Shown here: piece after piece, positions 23,423 through 44,977 of the stretch
Numbering within the stretch: the stretch's first letter is position 1
How the letters are laid out: every line of letters starts with the position of its first letter
Origin: Thermoplasmata archaeon
Lineage (GTDB): Archaea > Thermoplasmatota > Thermoplasmata > RBG-16-68-12 > JAFNFQ01
Assembly (NCBI GenBank): GCA_041489255.1
Contig: JBGPQV010000015.1
Span: 1-61,987 of the forward strand
Direction of reading: 5' to 3'
DNA: 61,987 nucleotides
Notes under the pieces: generated by a model
Databases searched by the model: none
The model's input: only the letters and a program-made list of their open reading frames with translations
What the model was told of the DNA's origin: nothing
Translations under genes and position numbers: made by a program

Positions 23423-25669
23423 CTATGCCGACCCGTACGGTGGCTGCTGAGGCGGGTACTGCTGCGGCGGTGGCGGAGCCTGAGGTGGCGGCGCGGGCGA
23501 CTCGGGCGCTCTCATCTTCGGTTTTCGCATCGACATCACCAGTGACAGTATCGAGACTATCAGCACGACGATCACCAGAATCATGAGCAGGTTCTGAGTG
23601 CTTGCCAGATCGTTCTTCGTCGCCATCTGATCCTTGACGGTGCCCATGTCATCGGAGAGCTGAGTGTTCATTTCGTCGATCGCGGTCTGGACGCTCGTCA
23701 GCGTCGTCTGCATGTTCGTTATGCTTGTCTGGAGGGAGGTTATCTGGGTCTGCATGCTGTTTATGTTGGTCTGCAGCGCGTTGATATTGTTCTGGGTCGT
23801 CGCGTTCATGCCGTCGACGAACGTCTGCAGGAGACTCACTTGACTCTGCAGGCCACTAACCGAGGTCTGCAGATTCGCTACCGCAGTCTGCAGGTTGCTG
23901 ATTTCCGTCTGGACGGTCGAAATCTGGGACATGAGGTTAGTGATGTTGTTCTGTAGCTGGTCGATCCTGGTCTGCAGGTTTGTCTCAACGTTCGTCAGTT
24001 GGGTCTGGAGGTTCGAGATCTCTGTCTCAAGCTGGTCGATTCTGTTCTGCAGCGTCGTGTTCATTCCGTTCATCGAGTCCTGGAGGGCAGCTATCTGGGC
24101 CTGCAGAGCCGCGATCATGTCCACGACCGTCGGGCCGACCGTGAACCTCACATAGGTCGGGCTGGACTCATATCCGGCTATGGTGGTCGTGGTGATGGCG
24201 AAGACGTAATCGCCGTTCGCGAGTCCAGTCAAATCAAAGGATGTCTGGGACGGAGAGACGGTGGCCACGAGAGCGGGACTCTCCGGGTTGCATGTCGCAT
24301 CCCAGATCAAGTAGCTCGCCAGGTCGCTCTCGCTGTTCGAATCCCACGTGAGTTGCACCGAGCCCGGTGCAGGCAGCGGCGTTGCAATGAGGTTCTTGAC
24401 TGGATTGGTCGGTCGGTCAATCCATATCGCGTATGCCTCATATCCGTTGGGAGCGCCTTCGTCGCGGGTGTACGACGCGAAGATCGTGTTGTCTGGAGCG
24501 GCGGCCAGTGTCGGCATAATCCCCGAATCCGGAGATAGCGGAACCTCTCGACCGAAGGTTGACCCCCAGTCGGGTGATCTCGCAATCTTCAGTTCAAATG
24601 GTACCGGTGGTGCGTCGAACCAAGCGACATAGACCTCACCGAGGTCGTTCGCAACGATGGTCGGCTTGGTCAAGGTCAAGTCGACATTGTCGTCCAGCCT
24701 GACCTCCATGGCAATGCTCGCGCCATGGTCGAATGAGCGCGTGTAGTATATGCCGCCATTCGTGTTATCCCGCCAAGCGACATGAAGTGTTTCGTGCACG
24801 TCGACATAGAGTGCAGCGTACATCACCTGGTGGTCCGTCTTGGGAACCTTGATGTTGCCCAGCCAGGTCGCGCCACCGTCTCTCGATATGTCCATTAGCA
24901 TTGTCAGACTGTTTTGGTCAAACCAAGATACGTAGACTGTTCCGAGGCTGTCGCACGCGATTGATGGGATGGCCTGCATCACCGTCAAGTCTGTGTTCAC
25001 ACCGTAGCTCGGGCCCCATGTCGTTCCGTTATCAGTCGATGCGCCGAAGTAGATGTCGAGCGTTCCAACGATGCTGTCTGACCACGTGGCGTAGATGTTG
25101 CCGTTGGGGGCCATCGCGATTTCCACAAACACTTCCATGTTCGCGCCAGCAGTGGTGCTGACCCTGGAGCTCGGGCCGAAGGTCGATCCGCCGTCGGTGC
25201 TTCTGGCGATCCGGATATCGCGGCCATTCGTTGCGGCGTCCCTGGTGTCGCTCCATGCGATGTAGATGTCACCGTTCGAAGCAACCAGCATGGCCACCGT
25301 ATGGTAACCGGCCCAGTCATTGTAAACGAATGCACCGCCATCGTTGACGAGGGTATGCCTCGTGAACACGGGGGCTCCTTCCGGGTAAAGCCCGTTGTCG
25401 TCAACCGCCAAGTACAGGTTGCCGTCAGCGCCGGTGTTTCTGAAGTAGGCAACGTATATCTGGCCTTTCGGTCCGACCGCCACGCGGGCGCCAACCTCGT
25501 TGTCTGTCGTACCCTCGCTTGCCCTCACCGGATATGTCGGGGGGTAGGCCATCGTTCCCGGGCTGAACATGGCAAGCACAAAGGCGACCATGAACAGTCC
25601 GCTCACAATGGCACGGAATCGTGCCGATCTGATTGCACTGGTTTCGGACTCGCGTCTGACTGCATCCAT
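23423..25669 (-). CDS. Secreted/membrane-anchored protein: BNR (Asp-box) beta-propeller + FN3 + long coiled-coil + TM + Pro/Gln tail (paralog 1)
   Basis: Signal peptide; repeated S.D.G.TF/W Asp-boxes; LTWDSNSESDLASY (FN3); heptad stalk; TM; ends PPQQPPYGSA. Confidence 0.85.
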   Translation of the reverse strand: MDAVRRESETSAIRSARFRAIVSGLFMVAFVLAMFSPGTMAYPPTYPVRASEGTTDNEVGARVAVGPKGQIYVAYFRNTGADGNLYLAVDDNGLYPEGAPVFTRHTLVNDGGAFVYNDWAGYHTVAMLVASNGDIYIAWSDTRDAATNGRDIRIARSTDGGSTFGPSSRVSTTAGANMEVFVEIAMAPNGNIYATWSDSIVGTLDIYFGASTDNGTTWGPSYGVNTDLTVMQAIPSIACDSLGTVYVSWFDQNSLTMLMDISRDGGATWLGNIKVPKTDHQVMYAALYVDVHETLHVAWRDNTNGGIYYTRSFDHGASIAMEVRLDDNVDLTLTKPTIVANDLGEVYVAWFDAPPVPFELKIARSPDWGSTFGREVPLSPDSGIMPTLAAAPDNTIFASYTRDEGAPNGYEAYAIWIDRPTNPVKNLIATPLPAPGSVQLTWDSNSESDLASYLIWDATCNPESPALVATVSPSQTSFDLTGLANGDYVFAITTTTIAGYESSPTYVRFTVGPTVVDMIAALQAQIAALQDSMNGMNTTLQNRIDQLETEISNLQTQLTNVETNLQTRIDQLQNNITNLMSQISTVQTEISNLQTAVANLQTSVSGLQSQVSLLQTFVDGMNATTQNNINALQTNINSMQTQITSLQTSITNMQTTLTSVQTAIDEMNTQLSDDMGTVKDQMATKNDLASTQNLLMILVIVVLIVSILSLVMSMRKPKMRAPESPAPPPQAPPPPQQYPPQQPPYGSA

Positions 25670-25849: not shown

Positions 25850-27763
25850 CTATGCCGACCCGTACGGTGGCTGCTGCGGCGGGTACTGTTGCGGCGGTGG
25901 CGGCTGCTGGTACTGCTGGGGCGGCGGGGGCTGGGCGGCGGGAGACGGCGCGGGCTCCGGCGCCTTCACCTTCGGCCTCCTTGCCGCGAGCGCCATCGTG
26001 ACGATCAGCAGGACGATGACCACTATCATCAGCATCATGTTCAGGTTCTGCGAGCTCGCGAGGTCGTTCTTCGTGTTCGTCAGTTGGTCCTGTAGTGCAG
26101 CGTTCTGATCCCCGAGGTCCTGCAGGTCTCCCTGCAGGCCGGTTATCGCGTCGTGCATGGAAGTGTTGAGCTGGTCAAACCGGTCCTGCAGGTCGTTGAA
26201 CTGGTCGTTGATCTGATCCTGCAAGGTGGGCCCCACGGTGAACGCCGCGAACGCGGGCTCGGAATTCTGCCCGGCGATGTCGACCGCCATCACAGCATAC
26301 GAGTACTCGCCGTTCGCGAGCCCAGTCAGATCGTACGTCGTCTGGGTCGATGGGACGATGGCGACTAGCCCGTAGTACATCTGCCCGTCGATGATCGCTA
26401 TCTCGTAGGCGGCGATGTCCCGCTCCGCATTGGGGAGCCACGAGATCCGGACCGAGCCGGGCGTCGCTAACGGCGTCGCCATGAGGTTCTTCACGGGCCG
26501 CGGCTCCGCGTCATCGAACAGCATGAACGCCTCGTCGTTGTCGGGCGCGCCCATGTTCCGCGTCCAAGCCCATATGACATTGTTGTTGTTGTCGACAGCG
26601 ACCGTCGGGGTGGCCGAAGGGTTCGAAGTGTACTGATACTCGGAGTTCCAGTCGAGGCCCCAGTCATAGGCACGGACGTACCTGGCATAAGGAGTCCCGC
26701 CGACCCTGTCTTCCCAGGTCACCAGGATATTGCCGTCGTCCGTTGAGGCTATCCTCGGGGACGGGTCCCCGTAGTCGCGCCCGTCGTCCAGCCTTACCGG
26801 CATGGACCATGTCAGGCCGCGGTCGAAGGAGTGCCTGTACCAGATGCCTTGGGTGTCGTAGTCCTGCCAGACGGCATGGACCATGTCGTGCGTGTCCACC
26901 GCGATATCCGGCAGGCCCGTCATGGTCCCCATCACGCCCAGTTCCGCGTTGCCGTTCCACGTCGCTCCGTTGTCGCGGGTGAAGTCGTAGTACGCGCTGA
27001 CGGGTCCCGCCCTCCAGTCCGACCAGGCGACGTACACAGACCCTGTGCTGTCGGTGGCGATCTTCGAGAACCATCTGCTGTTGGTTGTAACCTGGTTCAC
27101 CACGATGTTCGAGCTCCAGCTGGCACCGGCGTCAGTGGACCTCGAGACCATGATGTCCCAGTTGCCGCTGCGGTCGTCGGCCCAGGCGACCCAGGCGTCC
27201 CCGTTAGGGGCGACCGCGATGCTCGGGTAGTCCTCGGAGTTGACACCGTTGAAGTCGCTGATCTTCACGCTCGCGCCGAATGTGGCCCCGCTGTCGGTGC
27301 TCCTGGCAACCCTGATGTCCGTGCCCATCGTGGCCGAATCCCTGTCATCAATCCAGGCCCCGTAGACGTCCCCGTTCGGTGCCACCGCGAGCGCGGCGCT
27401 CCAGAACGGCGAGGTCTGCACATTCGCCCCGCCATCATTCATCTGCGTGTGCGTCGTGAAGACCGGCCCGCCCTCGGGGTAGATGCCGTCCGGGTCCACG
27501 GCCAGCACGTAGTTGGTGCCGCCAACGCCCCCGTCCCAGTACGCGACGTAGATCTCGCCGTTGGGTCCTGCGCCCGCCATCGCGCCGTATTCGACGTTGG
27601 GCGTCAGGTTGCTCGCCCTCGTGTCTCCCCAATTGAACGGCGCGATTCCGCCGGGCGTGAACATCACGGCCAGCATCGCGACCGCGAGGAGCGCGCCAAC
27701 GAGGAGGCTCCAATGCCTCTGCCCATTCGGTCTTGATACATGCTCACCTAGAATCTTTGACAC
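25850..27763 (-). CDS. BNR propeller + FN3 + short coiled-coil + TM + Pro/Gln tail surface protein (paralog 2)
   Basis: Colinear with paralog 1; GTG start at 27763 chosen by alignment of upstream context and signal length; identical C-terminus. Confidence 0.85.
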   Translation of the reverse strand: MSKILGEHVSRPNGQRHWSLLVGALLAVAMLAVMFTPGGIAPFNWGDTRASNLTPNVEYGAMAGAGPNGEIYVAYWDGGVGGTNYVLAVDPDGIYPEGGPVFTTHTQMNDGGANVQTSPFWSAALAVAPNGDVYGAWIDDRDSATMGTDIRVARSTDSGATFGASVKISDFNGVNSEDYPSIAVAPNGDAWVAWADDRSGNWDIMVSRSTDAGASWSSNIVVNQVTTNSRWFSKIATDSTGSVYVAWSDWRAGPVSAYYDFTRDNGATWNGNAELGVMGTMTGLPDIAVDTHDMVHAVWQDYDTQGIWYRHSFDRGLTWSMPVRLDDGRDYGDPSPRIASTDDGNILVTWEDRVGGTPYARYVRAYDWGLDWNSEYQYTSNPSATPTVAVDNNNNVIWAWTRNMGAPDNDEAFMLFDDAEPRPVKNLMATPLATPGSVRISWLPNAERDIAAYEIAIIDGQMYYGLVAIVPSTQTTYDLTGLANGEYSYAVMAVDIAGQNSEPAFAAFTVGPTLQDQINDQFNDLQDRFDQLNTSMHDAITGLQGDLQDLGDQNAALQDQLTNTKNDLASSQNLNMMLMIVVIVLLIVTMALAARRPKVKAPEPAPSPAAQPPPPQQYQQPPPPQQYPPQQPPYGSA

Positions 27764-27979
27764 TTGAAACACCATCCCTGCGGGCATTCGTCCTGCCCAT
27801 CCGCCCGCATTGATGCCGAATAGCTTGCACAGATATAAAACCGAGTCATTCCGAGAGAAGATTGCACGCTCCCCGCGACGATGGAGCGCTTGCGACGCTC
27901 GCTCTTGCAAACGGTTATTAGTTCGCGATTGTTTCAAGACACCCGAGCCTGCCAGCGCCCGCCGAGGGGAGTGTTCATC

Positions 27980-29272
27980 GTGAAAGAGTTCAAGCTTCCG
28001 GACATCGGAGAAGGTGTGCACGAAGGAGAGATCGTCAAGTGGATGGTGAAGGAGGGCGACGCCATCAAGGAGAACGACCCGATGGTCGAGGTGATGACGG
28101 ACAAGGTGACCGTCGAGATCCCCTCTCCGTTCACGGGCAAGGTCCTCAAGATCCTCGCGAAGGAGGGCGAGACTGTCAATGTCGGCTCGGTCATCATCTC
28201 CGTCGGCGAGGAAGGCGAGGCAGCGCCGGCGCCGGCACAGATTGAGGCAGCAGCGCCAAAGCCTGAAGCACCGCCGCCACCGCCGCCGGAGCCGACCGCG
28301 CTTGGCATGGTTCTCGCGACCCCCGCCATCAGGAAGATCGCGAGGGATATGGGCGTCGACATCAGCAAGGTCAGAGGCACGGGGCCGATGGGCCGGGTGA
28401 CCGAGGACGACATCAAGCAGTTCTCTGTAAAGCCCGCAGCACCGCCAACCGCCGCGGAGGCTCCACCGCCGATTCTTGCGTCTGCACCGCCAGCTCCCGC
28501 AATTGCACCGCCAATTCCCTCACCAGCACCGCCAGTCCCGTCACCGCCAGAGGAGAAACCCGCCGCCGCAAACGAGGAGCGCATCCCCCTCCGCGGGATC
28601 AGGAAGCGGATAGCGGAGAAGATGCACAAGTCCGTGACCACCGCCGCGCACTTCGGCTACGCGGACGAGGTCGACATGACGAACATCGTGCACCTGCGCG
28701 AGCGGCTCGAAGAGATGGCCGAGAGGAAGAAGGTCAGGCTGACCTACCTCCCGTTCGTCATCAAGGCGGTCACCGCCGCGTTGAAGGAATATCCGATTCT
28801 CAATTCATCGCTTGACGACGAGAGACAGGAGATAGTCATCAAGAAGTACTGCAACGTCGGCGTCGCGACCGCGACGGACCAGGGGCTCGTCGTGCCTGTG
28901 ATCAAGGACGCGGACAAGAAGGACATCTGGCAGCTCGCGAAGGAGATAGAGCAGCTCGCGGGGGACGCGCGCTCGGGGAAGCTCAAGCTGGAGGACGTCA
29001 CGGGCGGGACGATAACAATCACATCTCTCGGGGCTCAGGCGGGCGTGATAGCCTCCCCCGTCATCAACTGGCCCGAGGCGGCGATCATCAGCGTCAACAA
29101 GATAGAGAAGAGGCCTGTCGTGGTGAACGACCAGGTCGTCATCAGGCAGATGATGTACCTGTCGCTGTCGTTCGACCATAGGATCGTCGACGGGCATGTC
29201 GGCGCCGCATTCACTTCGGTGATGATCAAGTACCTGGAGCACCCGGCGCTGCTGTTCGTCGGGATGGAGTGA
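27980..29272 (+). CDS. pdhC: 2-oxoacid dehydrogenase E2 (dihydrolipoamide acyltransferase)
   Basis: FKLPDIGEG, lipoyl motif EVMTDKV, E3-binding ATPAIRK..GTG..GRV, catalytic DHRIVDG. Confidence 0.95.
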   Translation: MKEFKLPDIGEGVHEGEIVKWMVKEGDAIKENDPMVEVMTDKVTVEIPSPFTGKVLKILAKEGETVNVGSVIISVGEEGEAAPAPAQIEAAAPKPEAPPPPPPEPTALGMVLATPAIRKIARDMGVDISKVRGTGPMGRVTEDDIKQFSVKPAAPPTAAEAPPPILASAPPAPAIAPPIPSPAPPVPSPPEEKPAAANEERIPLRGIRKRIAEKMHKSVTTAAHFGYADEVDMTNIVHLRERLEEMAERKKVRLTYLPFVIKAVTAALKEYPILNSSLDDERQEIVIKKYCNVGVATATDQGLVVPVIKDADKKDIWQLAKEIEQLAGDARSGKLKLEDVTGGTITITSLGAQAGVIASPVINWPEAAIISVNKIEKRPVVVNDQVVIRQMMYLSLSFDHRIVDGHVGAAFTSVMIKYLEHPALLFVGME

Positions 29273-30298: not shown

Positions 30299-30598
30299 TC
30301 ATCCACCGCCACGAGGACGGTTGGGCACTCCCCGCGCGAACGGGTTGGCATAGAACACCCAGATGCATTCTTCGGCTGTGACGAATTCGAAGGTCACCCA
30401 TTCCGGGTCGCCGAGCTTGCGTATCCGCGAGAGGAGCGTTTCAAAGTCCTCATCGGAGTCGATTACCTTCCGGTTCTTCACCGCGATGTAGCGGTCGCCG
30501 AACTTCTTGCGCAGGGTCGGCAGGGACTTGTCGATCCATATCGAGTTCCGCTGTTCTCTTCGAATCGACCGGAGTATCTCCGCCTGGTTCACATTCAT
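30299..30598 (-). CDS. DUF5678-like small protein, followed by a probable aspartyl-protease remnant
   Basis: W.....L.KKFGDRYIAVKNRKVIDSDED...L pattern; GGAGG SD before ATG 30598. Confidence 0.65.
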   Translation of the reverse strand: MNVNQAEILRSIRREQRNSIWIDKSLPTLRKKFGDRYIAVKNRKVIDSDEDFETLLSRIRKLGDPEWVTFEFVTAEECIWVFYANPFARGVPNRPRGGG

Positions 30599-30754
30599 AT
30601 CCACCCTCCGATTCACCGGCAAGGCAATAAAGTATGGTCTTTCCATCATCAATTGCCCCTAATTCCTGTCGCTGACTGTTCGGCAGGTTTCGCACAAGGC
30701 TGCCCGCGGGCGAAATCGGGCGCTTTTTCCAACAATTCGACATCATTGAGAGGG

Positions 30755-31270
30755 AAGTCGGGGCAATCGGGAGAGATTCTCGAACAATTGAGAGGATGTC
30801 CGGAACAACCGGAATGGAACTCGGGACGATCGATGTGCACCCCCGAAAGGGTCTCCTTGACCTCGGACAATTGGGACGGACTCCGGCGCAATTGTCCCAA
30901 AGTCTGTAGCGATTGCGAAGGGTTCCGGGACATTCGTCCGGGCTTTGCGGGCAATCGGGGCGGGTTTCCGAACAACTGCGCCGAGGCTCGGGACAATAGG
31001 GATGCTCATTCGGACAAATGTATTGAATATACTCGCACCGGGACGGACGTCGGAACAATCGGGAGGGGTCCGCGCGCAATCGTCCCCACAGCCGGAGCAA
31101 CCGGGATGGACATCGGAGCAATCGAGAAGGGTCCACGGACATTCGTTCCGGGTTCCGGAGCAATTGCCCCAAGAGGCGTTCAGATCGGGATGGAAGCACG
31201 TCCGTATGGGGTGGACACGCCTTCAATCCGATTTAGGTTGCTTCAAGCTGAATATCGCCCGCTTCAAAAT
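30755..31270. repeat. 21-bp-period degenerate array A, about 20 clear units plus a decaying tail; core CGGRRCAATYG (+ strand)
   Basis: CAAT-type cores at 30764, 30785, 30806, 30827, 30868, 30889, 30910, 30931, 30952, 30973, 30994, 31015, 31056, 31077, 31098, 31119, 31140, 31161 and 31224. Confidence 0.85.
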
Positions 31271-31465
31271 GCGTTGCTGTCGACGCTTGTCTCCGGCGGC
31301 ATAGGTCCGGTCGGTTTGACCTCTGCCGGTGTGTGACGACGAGCGGCGCTGTTGATGCGGGATACCGTCAAGATCGAGCCGCGATTGGCGGGAATTTTCT
31401 TTGATATCGTTCATCCCGGGACAGTAACGCCCCCGTATGAACCGTCATCAGATTCGATCGGCATT

Positions 31466-31513
31466 CGAAAAAAGAAAAAATGGCGGGAGTCTGCCGCGAC
31501 CCCCGCCTTGTGG
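31466..31513 (-). terminator. Hairpin + T-tract terminator of helical gene A
   Basis: Minus strand: CAAGGCGGGGGTC-GCGGCA-GACTCCCGCC-ATTTTTTCTTTTTTCG. Confidence 0.75.
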
Positions 31514-31550
31514 ACTTAGGGTATTCCCCCTGACGTATCGCTTGTCGCGA

Positions 31551-31931
31551 TCACTCCGTCTTCATCGGGACGGGCTGAACGGCCGGGGACTCCACGTAGT
31601 CCGACCTGCGGATCCTGCTCCTGAGCCTCCGGATGTTCTTCGCCGCCGGCGACGACTTCTCGACCGCCGTCATCAGGGCGTCGACTCCTCCGGACGTCAG
31701 GTTGTAGAGGCGCTTCAGCCCATCGTTGAGCTGCTTCGTCTTGTCCTTCAGTTGCCTCTTCAGGTCTTCCTGGTCCGCGCCCAAGGCAACGACCTCGTCG
31801 TGGAGCCGCTTCAGGTTCCTCTGCATCGCGTCGGGGTCGTAACCGGCTGTTCTGAGCGCAGCGCCCTCCTCCAGGAAGGTCTTCTGCACGGTCGAAGAGA
31901 AACCGAGCGTCTGTGTTTCGGAAAGGGTCAT
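31551..31931 (-). CDS. Array-associated all-helical protein A (126 aa), function unknown
   Basis: Strong SD GAGGAGGTGA before ATG 31931; ungapped homology to 44163-44531. Confidence 0.8.
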   Translation of the reverse strand: MTLSETQTLGFSSTVQKTFLEEGAALRTAGYDPDAMQRNLKRLHDEVVALGADQEDLKRQLKDKTKQLNDGLKRLYNLTSGGVDALMTAVEKSSPAAKNIRRLRSRIRRSDYVESPAVQPVPMKTE

Positions 31932-32035
31932 CCTTTTTTTCACCTCCTCTTTTTTTCCTTCTCCGCGGAGGGTTCTCGCTTCCCCCGCGGGGAGTGAGTA
32001 AGACGTTGACTGGCGGGTACTTGAAATGGCCCCGT

Positions 32036-32079
32036 CCATCCAAAATGCATGCAGATTGCATCCAATATGCATCCAACAA
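32036..32079. repeat. Four 11-bp tandem repeats, consensus GCATCCAAWAT
   Basis: ccatccaaaat / gcatgcagatt / gcatccaatat / gcatccaacaa. Confidence 0.7.
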
Positions 32080-32160: not shown

Positions 32161-32580
32161 CTACTCGGGCGGGCTCTGGGTGTGCATCGGGGGTCCAGAC
32201 GGGGCCTTCGGTCGATTCTCGTTCGTGAGCAGTTCCATCTTCATCAACCAGTCCAGTTGCGCGTCTTCGCAGTTCACGGACTTCGCCCCCAGGTCGATGC
32301 CCGATGTCTCCGCGAGGATCTCCGCGAGGTCCCGCCCCGCCGGGGTGAGCTTGTAGACCTGCCTCTTCCCCTTCTCCCCCTTGACCCAGTCGCTCCTGAC
32401 CTCGACGTACCCCTCGAGCACGAGCCTGTTCAGCTCGATCCCGGCGTGGTTCCTTCGAATCCCGAGGACCCGCGAGACGCCGAGCTGAGTCATCTCTATG
32501 GGGAAGACCCTGTCCTCGTTATGGCGGCGGGTGTCGTACAGGTGCAGAACAATCTTGCTGCCGATGGTAAGGGCATCCAA
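32161..32580 (-). CDS. Stand-alone winged-helix DNA-binding protein
   Basis: MTQLGVSRVLGIRRNHAGIELNRL...KRQVYKLTPAG (wHTH with a Y.LT..G wing). Confidence 0.75.
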   Translation of the reverse strand: MDALTIGSKIVLHLYDTRRHNEDRVFPIEMTQLGVSRVLGIRRNHAGIELNRLVLEGYVEVRSDWVKGEKGKRQVYKLTPAGRDLAEILAETSGIDLGAKSVNCEDAQLDWLMKMELLTNENRPKAPSGPPMHTQSPPE

Positions 32581-33348: not shown

Positions 33349-33924
33349 TCAGGTCCCCCTTAGCAGATTGAGTGAAACGGTGGATTTCATGCTTCGAAAG
33401 CCCTCGTCATGCGTCGCAAGTTCATGGCAGCCCGAGCGTTCTGCGAATAGTATGTGGAGAATGTCAGCCCCGCCGGTGGTCCTCCAGTCTGGTTGTCCAT
33501 TTCGTCCCGGCCTCGAGGATTTGACGGGAAATGTGGATAACGCAGACTGCATCACGCGCGAAAAGAGGTCTGCATCTCCCTCTTCGGATTGACTCAGTTT
33601 GTCGGCATCCTGCAATTCAATCCCCGCTGCTCGAATAAACTTCTCTATCCGTGTGCTTATTCCCTGAAGCTGTTCAGCTGAAGGTGTTTTCCCGTCCCGC
33701 TGCGCGTATCCGACAGCGAGCACAGTAATGCATTCCGCCAAAGTAAACGTGCTCACGACGCCAACCATGTCGCCGTTGATGATCTTTTGCAGGAACCTCT
33801 GATTCCTAGCAAATGTGATGCCAGTCGCAGTCCCTAGCTCGTATGCAAGAATCATGGTATCAAGATAGACCCGGCGACGATTACTGGCAGTGCGGCCAGC
33901 AGACGGAGTATGTCCCTCGGCCAG
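33349..33924 (-). CDS. PIN-domain (VapC-like) RNase, probable CTG start
   Basis: RVYLDT (upstream of the track's ATG), STFTLAE, GGADILH, LATHDEGF. Confidence 0.75.
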   Translation of the reverse strand: MAEGHTPSAGRTASNRRRVYLDTMILAYELGTATGITFARNQRFLQKIINGDMVGVVSTFTLAECITVLAVGYAQRDGKTPSAEQLQGISTRIEKFIRAAGIELQDADKLSQSEEGDADLFSRVMQSALSTFPVKSSRPGRNGQPDWRTTGGADILHILFAERSGCHELATHDEGFRSMKSTVSLNLLRGT

Positions 33925-34512: not shown

Positions 34513-35133
34513 TCACTTCTCCGGTATGGGTTTTCCTTCCTCCATATCCTGGAAAATGCTGGTCAAGTCAACACGCTCGTCGACGGTGTCGAAGAGCTCC
34601 GGCGCCACCGAAGTTTCTCGTGTTTTGACATAGAACAGTCTCACGATTGCTCCAGCGTCTCTCGCAGCCATGACGGCCGCGACATAATCGCCGTCGCCGC
34701 CGACAAGGCCTATGTGCAGTGCCTCCTTCGACCAAGCTATCTTCGTCATCTCCACAGCCAAGAGCACGTCGACCATCTTCTGCTCTATAGTCACGACCTG
34801 TGTCATTGCTGACTGGAATCCCCCATCCTTGAGATAGCCAGATACGGTTGTCTGCTTGCAGTACCCCTTGCGTACCGTGAACCGCTCGAGACGGTCGATG
34901 GCACGCAACTCCTCCTCTTTCTTGCGATACTTCTCCTGCTGCAAGTTCGAAGGATTGTTCCTGTCCTTGAAGGGAAGTGCGTCGAAATAGTACGTGCGGA
35001 ACCGCCAGTGATATCTCGGGACGAGTCGGTTGGCGAAGGATTGCAGATCCCACTTGGCGTCAGAGACGAACCCATGGCGGGCCTTCTCCAGCCACCCGCC
35101 ATCGATGAGGCTGATGGACCTGGATTTGTCCAT
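34513..35133 (-). CDS. NYN/LabA-domain (PIN-like) RNase
   Basis: LIDGGWL, RTYYFDA, EQKMVDVLLAVEM, VGGDGDYV, DTVDER. Confidence 0.9.
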   Translation of the reverse strand: MDKSRSISLIDGGWLEKARHGFVSDAKWDLQSFANRLVPRYHWRFRTYYFDALPFKDRNNPSNLQQEKYRKKEEELRAIDRLERFTVRKGYCKQTTVSGYLKDGGFQSAMTQVVTIEQKMVDVLLAVEMTKIAWSKEALHIGLVGGDGDYVAAVMAARDAGAIVRLFYVKTRETSVAPELFDTVDERVDLTSIFQDMEEGKPIPEK

Positions 35134-44162: not shown

Positions 44163-44531
44163 ATGCTGACAGATGCCGACGCGATCGCCTTTGTCAAGAA
44201 GGTAATCGAACTTCTGGAGGGCGAGCGCAAGGCACTGAAAGCAGCCGGTCTCGATGTGGACTTCATGCTGAGCACCCTGACAAACCTGCTAGAGCAGGCA
44301 GCCGCCACGGAGCAGCAGCAGGAGGCCGCAAAGAGGCAGACCAGGGCGTCGACGGAGTCCTGGCTGGCCCTCAAGCGGAAGTCGTACGTCACCGCGTCCG
44401 GTTATCTGGACATGGCGATGGCGGCGGTCTCGAAGGACAGCGCCACGGCGAAGAACTTTCGGCTGATCAGGAGCGCCATGCACCGCCCGATGAAGGGCGA
44501 GGCGCCGATCATCACGCCCGCGAAGGTGTAG
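44163..44531 (+). CDS. Array-associated all-helical protein B (122 aa), function unknown
   Basis: SD GGGGTGA; paralog of 31551-31931 sharing AL..AG.D.D.M, QE..KRQ, Y...SG..D..M.AV.K.S..AKN.R..RS. Confidence 0.8.
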   Translation: MLTDADAIAFVKKVIELLEGERKALKAAGLDVDFMLSTLTNLLEQAAATEQQQEAAKRQTRASTESWLALKRKSYVTASGYLDMAMAAVSKDSATAKNFRLIRSAMHRPMKGEAPIITPAKV

Positions 44532-44562: not shown

Positions 44563-44606
44563 CAAGGCCCCCGCAAGGAGGCCACTTTTTCTTTTTTCGT
44601 TTTTCT
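44563..44606 (+). terminator. Hairpin + T-tract terminator of helical gene B
   Basis: CAAGGCCCCC-GCAA-GGAGGCC-ACTTTTTCTTTTTTCG; same flanks as the gene A terminator. Confidence 0.75.
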
Positions 44607-44662
44607 AGTGCTTCATGAATTCTCTGAATTGGCGGGAACACCGCACGACATGGATTGGTGCC

Positions 44663-44977
44663 CGCCACATTCGCCCTAATTGCCTCCACAAGTGGCGGTG
44701 AATGTTCTGCATGTGGAGGAGGTTGCTCCACATGTTGCGGATTTTCCTCCACATGTAGCAGTGGTTCCTCCATATGTCGCGCAGGTACCGCCACGTGTTT
44801 CCGACTCTCCTCCGCATGTTGCAGAGTCAGTCCTGCATGCGGCGGAGGGACCTCCACGTGTTGCGCAAGTCCCGCCATATGTTCACAACTCACCTCCACG
44901 TGTGGGGGAAGTAGCTCCACATGTTCCCGAAGTCAATCTGAATGTTGCGGGAAGACCGCTATATGGAGTGCGTCTTG
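44663..44977. repeat. 21-bp-period array B, 15 units, core CTCCACATGT + 11-bp variable linker
   Basis: Units in exact 21-bp register from 44663 (cgccacattc) to 44957 (cgctatatgg). Confidence 0.9.

Follow-up and report, generated by a model that had tools for sequence, protein, structure and literature searches.

The DNA analysed here (the window) is a stretch of 61,987 nucleotides from a Thermoplasmata archaeon (assembly GCA_041489255.1, contig JBGPQV010000015.1, positions 1 to 61,987), in which an earlier note, made from the sequence alone, had pointed to a candidate new system near 31 kb composed of a small protein gene, a terminator and an array of 21-bp units. These three parts are found in this order on the minus strand and are termed gene A, terminator A and array A (Table 1). 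Gene A, with its 126 codons, is preceded by the strong Shine-Dalgarno sequence described before, GGAGGTGA, which stops 8 nt 5' of the ATG, and its promoter region contains a motif (AAGTACCCGCC...CCAACGTC) common to the C9 and C3 loci of the family. The hairpin and T-tract announced behind the gene are also present, in the form of a stem of ten pairs (eight of them G-C) that runs on the minus strand from 31507 to 31482 and continues into ATTTTTTCTT; similar hairpin and T-run sequences are found 3' of the gene in the paralogues.

The units of array A run on the minus strand from 31193 to 30734, the array ending near 30734 and not at 30755 as first delimited. Positions 7-12 of the unit read C-g-A-T-T-G, with the cytosine at position 7 present in 21/21 units, and the unit core is the reverse complement of the CGGRRCAATYG core given earlier. 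The expected spacing of some 20 or more units at 21 bp is clear, with a self-match at lag 21 of 0.445 as compared with 0.261 ± 0.021 in 1000 shuffles (z 8.6; top shuffle 0.344). Two steps depart from it, one of 20 bp (31046 to 31026) and one of 41 bp (30879 to 30838), at the very places where two 1-bp slips had been reported, and the succession EQ, DN and AI can be read across the array in the open reading frame (ORF) 30653..31336. Tandem Repeats Finder (TRF) does not detect array A and sees just a fragment of array B (4.2 copies), because the units are too divergent.

The recurrence of this layout at 44.2-45.0 kb could be followed in most of its parts. A paralogous gene (gene B, whose product shares 33% identity with protein A over 118 aa, E 2e-16), a different core, an array of 14 units and a T-rich run are all in place, and the terminator hairpin is the one part not called by the pattern scan. 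The core of array B can also be given as CCTCCACATGT, and its lag-21 self-match is 0.531 versus 0.253 ± 0.025 in shuffles (z 11.3). A third 21-bp-periodic region of the window (23471-24206) was rejected as an array, since it is the true coding sequence of the coiled-coil stalk of a 748-aa surface protein.

Table 1. Features of locus A and of its paralogous copy B (positions in the window).
Feature	Position	Strand	Properties and basis
Small protein gene A	31551..31931	-	126 aa, ORF; member of an unnamed family
5' end of conserved module A: proximal promoter region and leader with GGAGGTGA	31932..32024	-	Homology to the G201 copy (L033) begins at 32024
Terminator A: G+C-rich hairpin, then T-run	31472..31507	-	Stem of ten pairs, eight of them G-C
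Spacer between terminator and array A, about 290 bp	31194..31471	-	Part of the conserved module; about 90% identity to G201; weak lag-42 signal
Array A	30734..31193	.	21 units stepping by 20.90 bp on average; core with dyad symmetry around CGATTG/CAATTG; interpreted as phased, non-coding DNA sites
Accessory winged-helix (PadR-like) regulator gene	32161..32580	-	ORF, 139 aa; Pfam match to PadR (E 3.4e-4) that falls short of the curated cut-off
About four tandem 11-bp repeats TTGGATGCAnn (gene strand), between regulator gene and gene A promoter	32037..32076	-	TRF period 11, 3.6 copies
Small protein gene B	44163..44531	+	Encodes 122 aa; paralogous to gene A
Imperfect G+C-rich hairpin and long T-rich run 3' of gene B	44564..44606	+	Sequence; TRF TTTTTCT x3 at 44586-44606
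Array B	44668..44961	.	14 units of 21 bp, core CCTCCACATGTTGCGG, no slips; degenerate units from near 44620

The linkage of gene and array holds well beyond the window. Its genome (2.74 Mb, 41 contigs) contains 12 full-length and about five partial family copies, and a blind scan of the whole genome for lag-21 self-match returned 52 regions with a total of 27.4 kb, which represents 1.0% of the genome. A 21-bp-periodic region lies within 1 kb downstream of 16 of the 17 family copies and upstream only of the remaining one. Of 26 evaluable loci in five other genomes (those with 600 bp or more downstream of the gene; five further loci were too short), 19 have an array downstream, and 43 non-redundant metagenome loci comprise 25 with a downstream array, 7 without and 11 too short, that is, 25 of 32 evaluable; an upstream array was seen in 4 of 30 metagenome loci. 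The succession gene, terminator, array is the same in separate families of the order, and one genome of a different class has it too.

That gene and array belong together, as proposed before, is supported by this linkage and by the joint transfer described below. The pairing is not one-to-one: the genome holds 30 clearly non-coding arrays that fall into about ten core types. Thirteen arrays have no adjacent family gene, 11 of which share their type with a gene-linked array; the core type of array A recurs at four or five other places in the genome. The core co-varies with protein clade: over 47 gene-array pairs, array similarity correlates with protein identity with a Spearman rho of 0.22, a value reached by 0 of 300 Mantel permutations, and co-inheritance alone would produce the same pattern. 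The increase is confined to protein identities above about 60-70%, and in the B-like clade a CATG-centred core is kept in 10 of 11 metagenome arrays. Matches to the core motifs outside arrays remain at the level of column-permuted controls for all six types tested (6/6), and the idea of a dispersed regulon of single sites was dropped, no such regulon having been found. The motifs are essentially confined to arrays, and the sites therefore act as arrays.

The arrays are not maintained as protein, in agreement with the earlier claim. Steps of 20 or 41 bp occur in 11 of 17 arrays, substitutions between orthologous arrays show no preference among the three codon phases (no position-mod-3 bias), and the conserved positions form a single contiguous block of 11-14 bp without codon phase. 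Eight coding heptad regions of the same genome, taken as a control, have 0 slips. About 17 of the 52 periodic regions fall within large ORFs, and for at least one of these "in-ORF" regions the ORF has been extended artificially across an intergenic array.

The earlier note had left open whether the units are phased DNA sites or an RNA of repeat-spacer units, and four lines of evidence (dyad symmetry, lack of covariation, a period near 20.9 bp and the absence of a strand preference) favour the DNA sites. The dyad symmetry of the consensus unit, measured against column-permuted units, has a z above 0 in 17/17 arrays (mean z 2.6; p<0.05 in 11/17), and dyad-symmetric units are also seen in arrays of other genomes, for instance CCCCCGATCGAGGG, TGCCAnnTGGCA and CACATGTG. 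Within single units this symmetry is not kept up by compensation. Watson-Crick cells (973/2104) are at the column-shuffle level and no covariation was detected in the double-change cells (154 vs 151 expected), and in array B an independent pair-counting tool gave 53.8% paired positions vs 57.6% in shuffles. A palindromic consensus whose halves deviate independently fits a protein site on duplex DNA and is unlike a hairpin; hairpin RNA units were dropped for this absence of covariation.

The spacing of the units points in the same direction. Over 63 non-coding arrays, steps average 20.92 bp and the spectral peak has a median of 20.85 bp (interquartile range 20.76-20.98), and slips of -1 outnumber those of +1 by 97 to 11 (binomial p 2e-18, for arrays that are partly non-independent). 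The helical repeat of B-DNA in solution is 10.4-10.5 bp. The period of about 20.9 bp is twice this value and therefore corresponds to two turns of B-DNA, a rare case in which the DNA helical repeat is legible in a natural sequence.

Gene and array also move together. The block formed by gene A and its array (32024-30760) aligns at 92% with the sister species G201 and has sharp ends, both flanks being unrelated, so that gene and array are seen to transfer jointly between genomes as one 1.27-kb block. In G201 the gene in front of this block is a winged-helix gene whose counterpart in the window's genome is part of the paralogous C9 locus, which shows that the cassette was exchanged between loci. 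Gene A itself differs between the two copies at about 7 of 381 bases, and the non-coding part differs by 8-10%. At another locus, compared between G000 and G201, units were duplicated and reshuffled with the core and the period kept, the flanks being 92-95% identical. Arrays persist next to decayed gene fragments and also alone. Two arrays of the A core type are placed at contig ends (C9:1-919 and C16:1-569), and public data contain many homologue contigs with a length of about 1 kb; short-read assemblies probably break at the arrays.

The small protein belongs to a family for which a search of 1.84 billion proteins with a profile of the paralogues gave 328 cluster representatives (E<=1e-3), the named ones carrying "hypothetical" or clearly spurious names. 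No above-cut-off family match was found in Pfam, PHROGs, NCBIfam, PADLOC or PDB sequences, and the term "helical" is based solely on composition and weak sub-threshold coiled-coil Pfam hits. Nearly invariant residues include Gln54, Thr65, Ser80, Asp84, Lys92 and Arg104. The most conserved part of the protein is its basic, arginine-rich C-terminal stretch (AAKNIRRLRSRIRR). A second species of the genus has 17 family matches, and one other family of the order has 2-5 matches in each of its 4/4 genomes; none of 35 genomes from five other families of the order contains a family gene, and two of 200 other genomes sampled from the phylum gave a match, one of them strong. The window stretch is present in sediment metagenome runs. 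No relatives were found in viral contigs, a plasmid collection or phages, and an origin from a mobile element was dropped on these grounds.

Distant homologues occur as tandem fusions with two family copies each. One database protein of 425 aa (P0095) has two family domains, a Pro-rich linker and a 7-residue-periodic tail (RTxVWNI-like), and this tail looks like the product of a gene caller that read through into a downstream array; spurious heptad "proteins" of this kind may be common in metagenome gene sets. Two gene fragments, C2:253083-253223 and C36:7484-7588, match the C-terminal 35-45 residues of the family alone and are located just past the arrays of two intact loci, and four other arrays are preceded by C-terminal family fragments alone. 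The presence of such fragments at arrays suggests that recombination may take place within the conserved 3' part of the gene.

Seven of the 17 loci of the genome, locus A among them, have a winged-helix gene immediately upstream of the small-protein gene. Together with the operator-like 11-bp repeats that follow it at locus A, this gene had been overlooked in the earlier note. The partner is seen solely in this genus (G000 and G201), with none at the loci of the other family or class, and the pair conserved across lineages is for that reason the small protein and the array. Each of the seven regulator-bearing loci has its own set of four to six tandem 11-bp repeats, different in sequence from locus to locus, and those of locus A are placed outside the block conserved in G201. 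The repeats are likely to be the operator of the winged-helix protein, and repeats and genes together look like a set of separate regulator/operator pairs. The winged-helix protein was dropped as binder of the arrays, since it is found in a single genus and comes with different repeats of its own. The same domain starts much larger proteins (430-870 aa) encoded at C12:62232-64838, C20:31513-33441, C1:119436-120728 and elsewhere. Clustering of the genes found up to 1 kb and up to 5 kb from the loci gave the winged-helix family as the sole recurrent neighbour.

The gene-plus-array module is thus real and strongly supported, and apparently undescribed so far. We read its arrays as helically phased sites on duplex DNA for a symmetric binder, which would most likely be the adjacent small protein, and assign to this reading a probability of roughly 0.5. 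Each array would offer 10-30 binding sites two helical turns apart, all facing one side of the helix, and a symmetric (dimeric) protein would bind them cooperatively to build a nucleoprotein filament. The small protein encoded just upstream is the best candidate for this role because it is the sole partner conserved across lineages, and the tandem fusions of distant homologues hint at a dimer. The terminator would shield the array from transcription of its own gene, and further arrays of its core type, at other chromosomal places, would be reached by the protein in trans, array sites probably acting in trans as well as in cis. At some loci the winged-helix protein, acting on its own set of 11-bp repeats, would regulate the small-protein gene. 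About ten separate protein/array specificities would in this manner mark about 30 loci in the genome, and we lean towards a landmark role for these, in chromosome organisation or with a centromere-like or barrier function.

A more far-reaching and tentative proposal, which we hold to be rather less probable than its alternatives taken together, is a hitherto undescribed chromosomal "address" system of archaea, in which a small-protein family would have diversified to some ten DNA specificities, each forming filaments on its own helically phased arrays at some thirty landmark loci, the gene-plus-array cassette spreading and swapping as a unit. Such motor-less landmarks could serve chromosome folding, pairing or segregation. 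How chromosomes are organised and segregated in archaea without known partition machines is an open question, and helically phased protein/array pairs would represent a new principle and a toolbox of non-cross-reacting DNA tags. Whatever its function, the family is notable for its size and for arrays that are missed by repeat finders and mis-called as ORFs; such arrays probably lie behind many of the assembly breaks, and of the spurious heptad "proteins", in bins of sediment archaea.

Several findings weigh against the reading of the arrays as phased sites for the small protein. Seven evaluable loci of the other genomes (L024, L030, L031, L045, L049, L050 and L051) and seven of the 32 evaluable metagenome loci have no downstream array, most of these array-less loci belonging to more distant homologues. 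The promoter of the gene shows no enrichment of the cognate core, which ranks from 3 to 17 among 17 position weight matrices across 12 loci, and autoregulation through the array motif was dropped for this lack of enrichment. The conserved basic C-terminus is the same across paralogues while the cores differ, which would leave specificity to the variable N-terminal half. Core positions change almost as fast as linker positions when orthologous arrays are compared (59/637, or 9.3%, vs 80/699, or 11.4%; p 0.21), and the constraint on each site is therefore weak. The excess of -1 slips could in part be accounted for by deletion-biased mutation. Finally, a metatranscriptome library (run X24) contains two contigs that fall within array A, one of 254 nt (30891-31138, 10 differences, word depth 11.9) and one of 151 nt (31120-31267, 14 differences).

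These last contigs are a weak hint that the array is transcribed as a repeat RNA, which might sequester the small protein or be sequestered by it in a sponge-like manner, or be cut to units of about 21 nt. This is the best placed of the alternatives, and still an unlikely one. The arginine-rich C-terminal stretch of the protein would suit RNA, the array follows the terminator directly on the gene strand and could be produced by read-through, and the gene strand of array A folds somewhat better against shuffles than the other strand (z -2.87 vs -1.56). The contigs themselves show no strand, and an RNA library can contain DNA; with about five arrays of the A core type in the genome they could be carry-over of multi-copy DNA. 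The body of gene A has no contig in run X24, an absence that, with contigs, is uninformative. Against a repeat RNA stand the lack of covariation in the unit hairpins, where G-U cells on the gene strand (238) exceed A-C cells (199) just slightly, and the lack of a consistent strand bias in composition or fold z-scores relative to the gene strand across 17 arrays. Rfam gave 0 gathering-score matches in the window and 0 matches at E<=1 on array A; its three matches on array B are at chance level (best E 0.016, far under the gathering scores). No conserved promoter-like element was found between terminator and array, a TTTAAA past the terminator of one paralogue being missing from its G201 orthologue, and neither a non-integer period of 20.9 nor a dyad-symmetric consensus has an obvious meaning for RNA. 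On balance, phased DNA sites are the better supported of the two options.

The similar divergence of core and linker between orthologues would also be expected if the arrays were tandem repeats of a selfish or neutral kind, homogenised by slippage and gene conversion, that hitch-hike with the gene and do not interact with its protein. The rapid duplication and loss of whole units and the persistence of arrays beside decayed gene fragments or on their own agree with such an origin. We nevertheless consider it improbable, as it leaves aside the constant order of gene, terminator and array in distinct families of the order and in a genome of another class, the survival of the period and of the dyad-symmetric core through the turnover of units, and the joint transfer of gene and array as a block with sharp ends.

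A comparable but slightly smaller weight is given to the possibility that the arrays are indeed phased duplex-DNA sites and that their binder is another protein encoded elsewhere, the small protein serving, for example, as an adaptor. The uniformity of the conserved region among paralogues with different cores, the arrays without an adjacent family gene and the many winged-helix proteins of the genome, including the fusions to large proteins, can all be cited for it. No other gene is conserved beside the arrays across lineages, though, the winged-helix partner has its own and different 11-bp repeats, and the array type follows the clade of the small protein. A protein-coding heptad (7-residue) repeat, suggested by a unit of seven codons, by long ORFs that span arrays A and B in several frames, by the run-on of gene callers in P0095 and by the true coding heptads in surface proteins of the genome, is hardly credible in view of the 1-bp slips (11/17 arrays; 108 over the 63 arrays), the contiguous conserved block and substitutions without codon phase, the slip-free coding controls and the terminator that stands between gene and array.

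The reading of the arrays as phased sites for the small protein calls for comparison with plasmid partition loci, with which the module shares repeats near a small-protein gene (at 16/17 loci, within 1 kb downstream) and dyad-symmetric units. No ParA/ParM/TubZ-type NTPase was found among the recurrent neighbours (1 kb, 5 kb) or in the 15 window ORFs scanned with Pfam. The sopC site of the F plasmid is built from 12 repeats of 43 bp; every repeat includes a 16-bp inverted repeat, to which a single SopB dimer binds (PMC2910045). The module and sopC share tandem inverted-repeat units that adjoin the gene of the binder (here a putative one), and they differ in the unit (21 bp vs 43 bp), in the lack of a SopA-like NTPase gene near the loci and in the number of arrays, about 30 of about ten types per chromosome vs one per plasmid. 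The small protein has no ParB/SopB similarity and no match in the plasmid collection, and searches of Pfam, NCBIfam and PDB sequences returned nothing that would assign it a ribbon-helix-helix, ParB-HTH or winged-helix fold. The parC site of R1 is described as two sets of five 11-bp iterons that flank the par promoter and bind about one ParR dimer per iteron (PMC2241845), and ParR/parC families with separate specificities are reported for plasmids of Clostridium perfringens (PMC9426499). The parC site likewise has helix-phased tandem direct repeats by the gene of a small dimeric binder (again putative here), ParR also repressing the promoter, and its iterons are resembled by the 11-bp repeats upstream of gene A; the arrays are unlike it in their two-turn period, their place downstream behind a terminator and the absence of a ParM-like gene.

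Plasmid iterons are direct repeats of about 17-22 bp with a spacing of roughly two turns, located beside the gene of a Rep initiator in few copies and at one origin per replicon. The arrays share with them the two-turn-spaced direct repeats beside a protein gene, and are unlike them in having 10-30 units, about 30 arrays and no Rep-like protein among the matches found. The module is neither CRISPR nor TIGR-Tas, as had been stated. With TIGR-Tas it has in common weakly conserved tandem units by the gene of a small, largely helical protein and a mixture of conserved and variable stretches; its units are of 21 bp, its cores are locus-specific without common box motifs, and the small protein gave no Pfam match to a Nop domain at E<=1 (sequence level). 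CRISPR repeats of about 23-50 nt alternate with unique spacers of similar length, unlike the whole unit of 21 bp with its variable part of 7-10 bp, and no Cas family was found among the scanned window neighbours, nor an above-noise PADLOC match for the four locus proteins. In type III toxin-antitoxin systems (ToxIN-like) a repeat array lies upstream of the gene of an endoribonuclease toxin, with a terminator in between; here the order is gene, terminator, array, and no toxin-family match was obtained. No known family fits the gene-plus-array module, and literature searches, with supplementary files outside their coverage, returned no description of such an arrangement.

Among the remaining genes of the window, two large surface-type proteins of 748 and 723 aa are encoded side by side (23423-25669 and 25850-28021, both on the minus strand). 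Both have BNR-like repeats, a coiled-coil stalk built from true 21-bp heptads, a membrane anchor and a Pro/Gln-rich tail, and their relatives in the genome number about 70 and occupy about 9% of its length. A link of the small-protein loci to these 70 genes was found unconvincing, 9/17 loci having one within 5 kb vs about 0.36 expected per locus. The small genes around locus A (30299-30652, 33349-33855 and 34513-35133, all on the minus strand) include those for DUF5678 and NYN-domain (nuclease-like) proteins, most other neighbours being without a family, and between 29 and 46 kb small genes appear to form a variable island.

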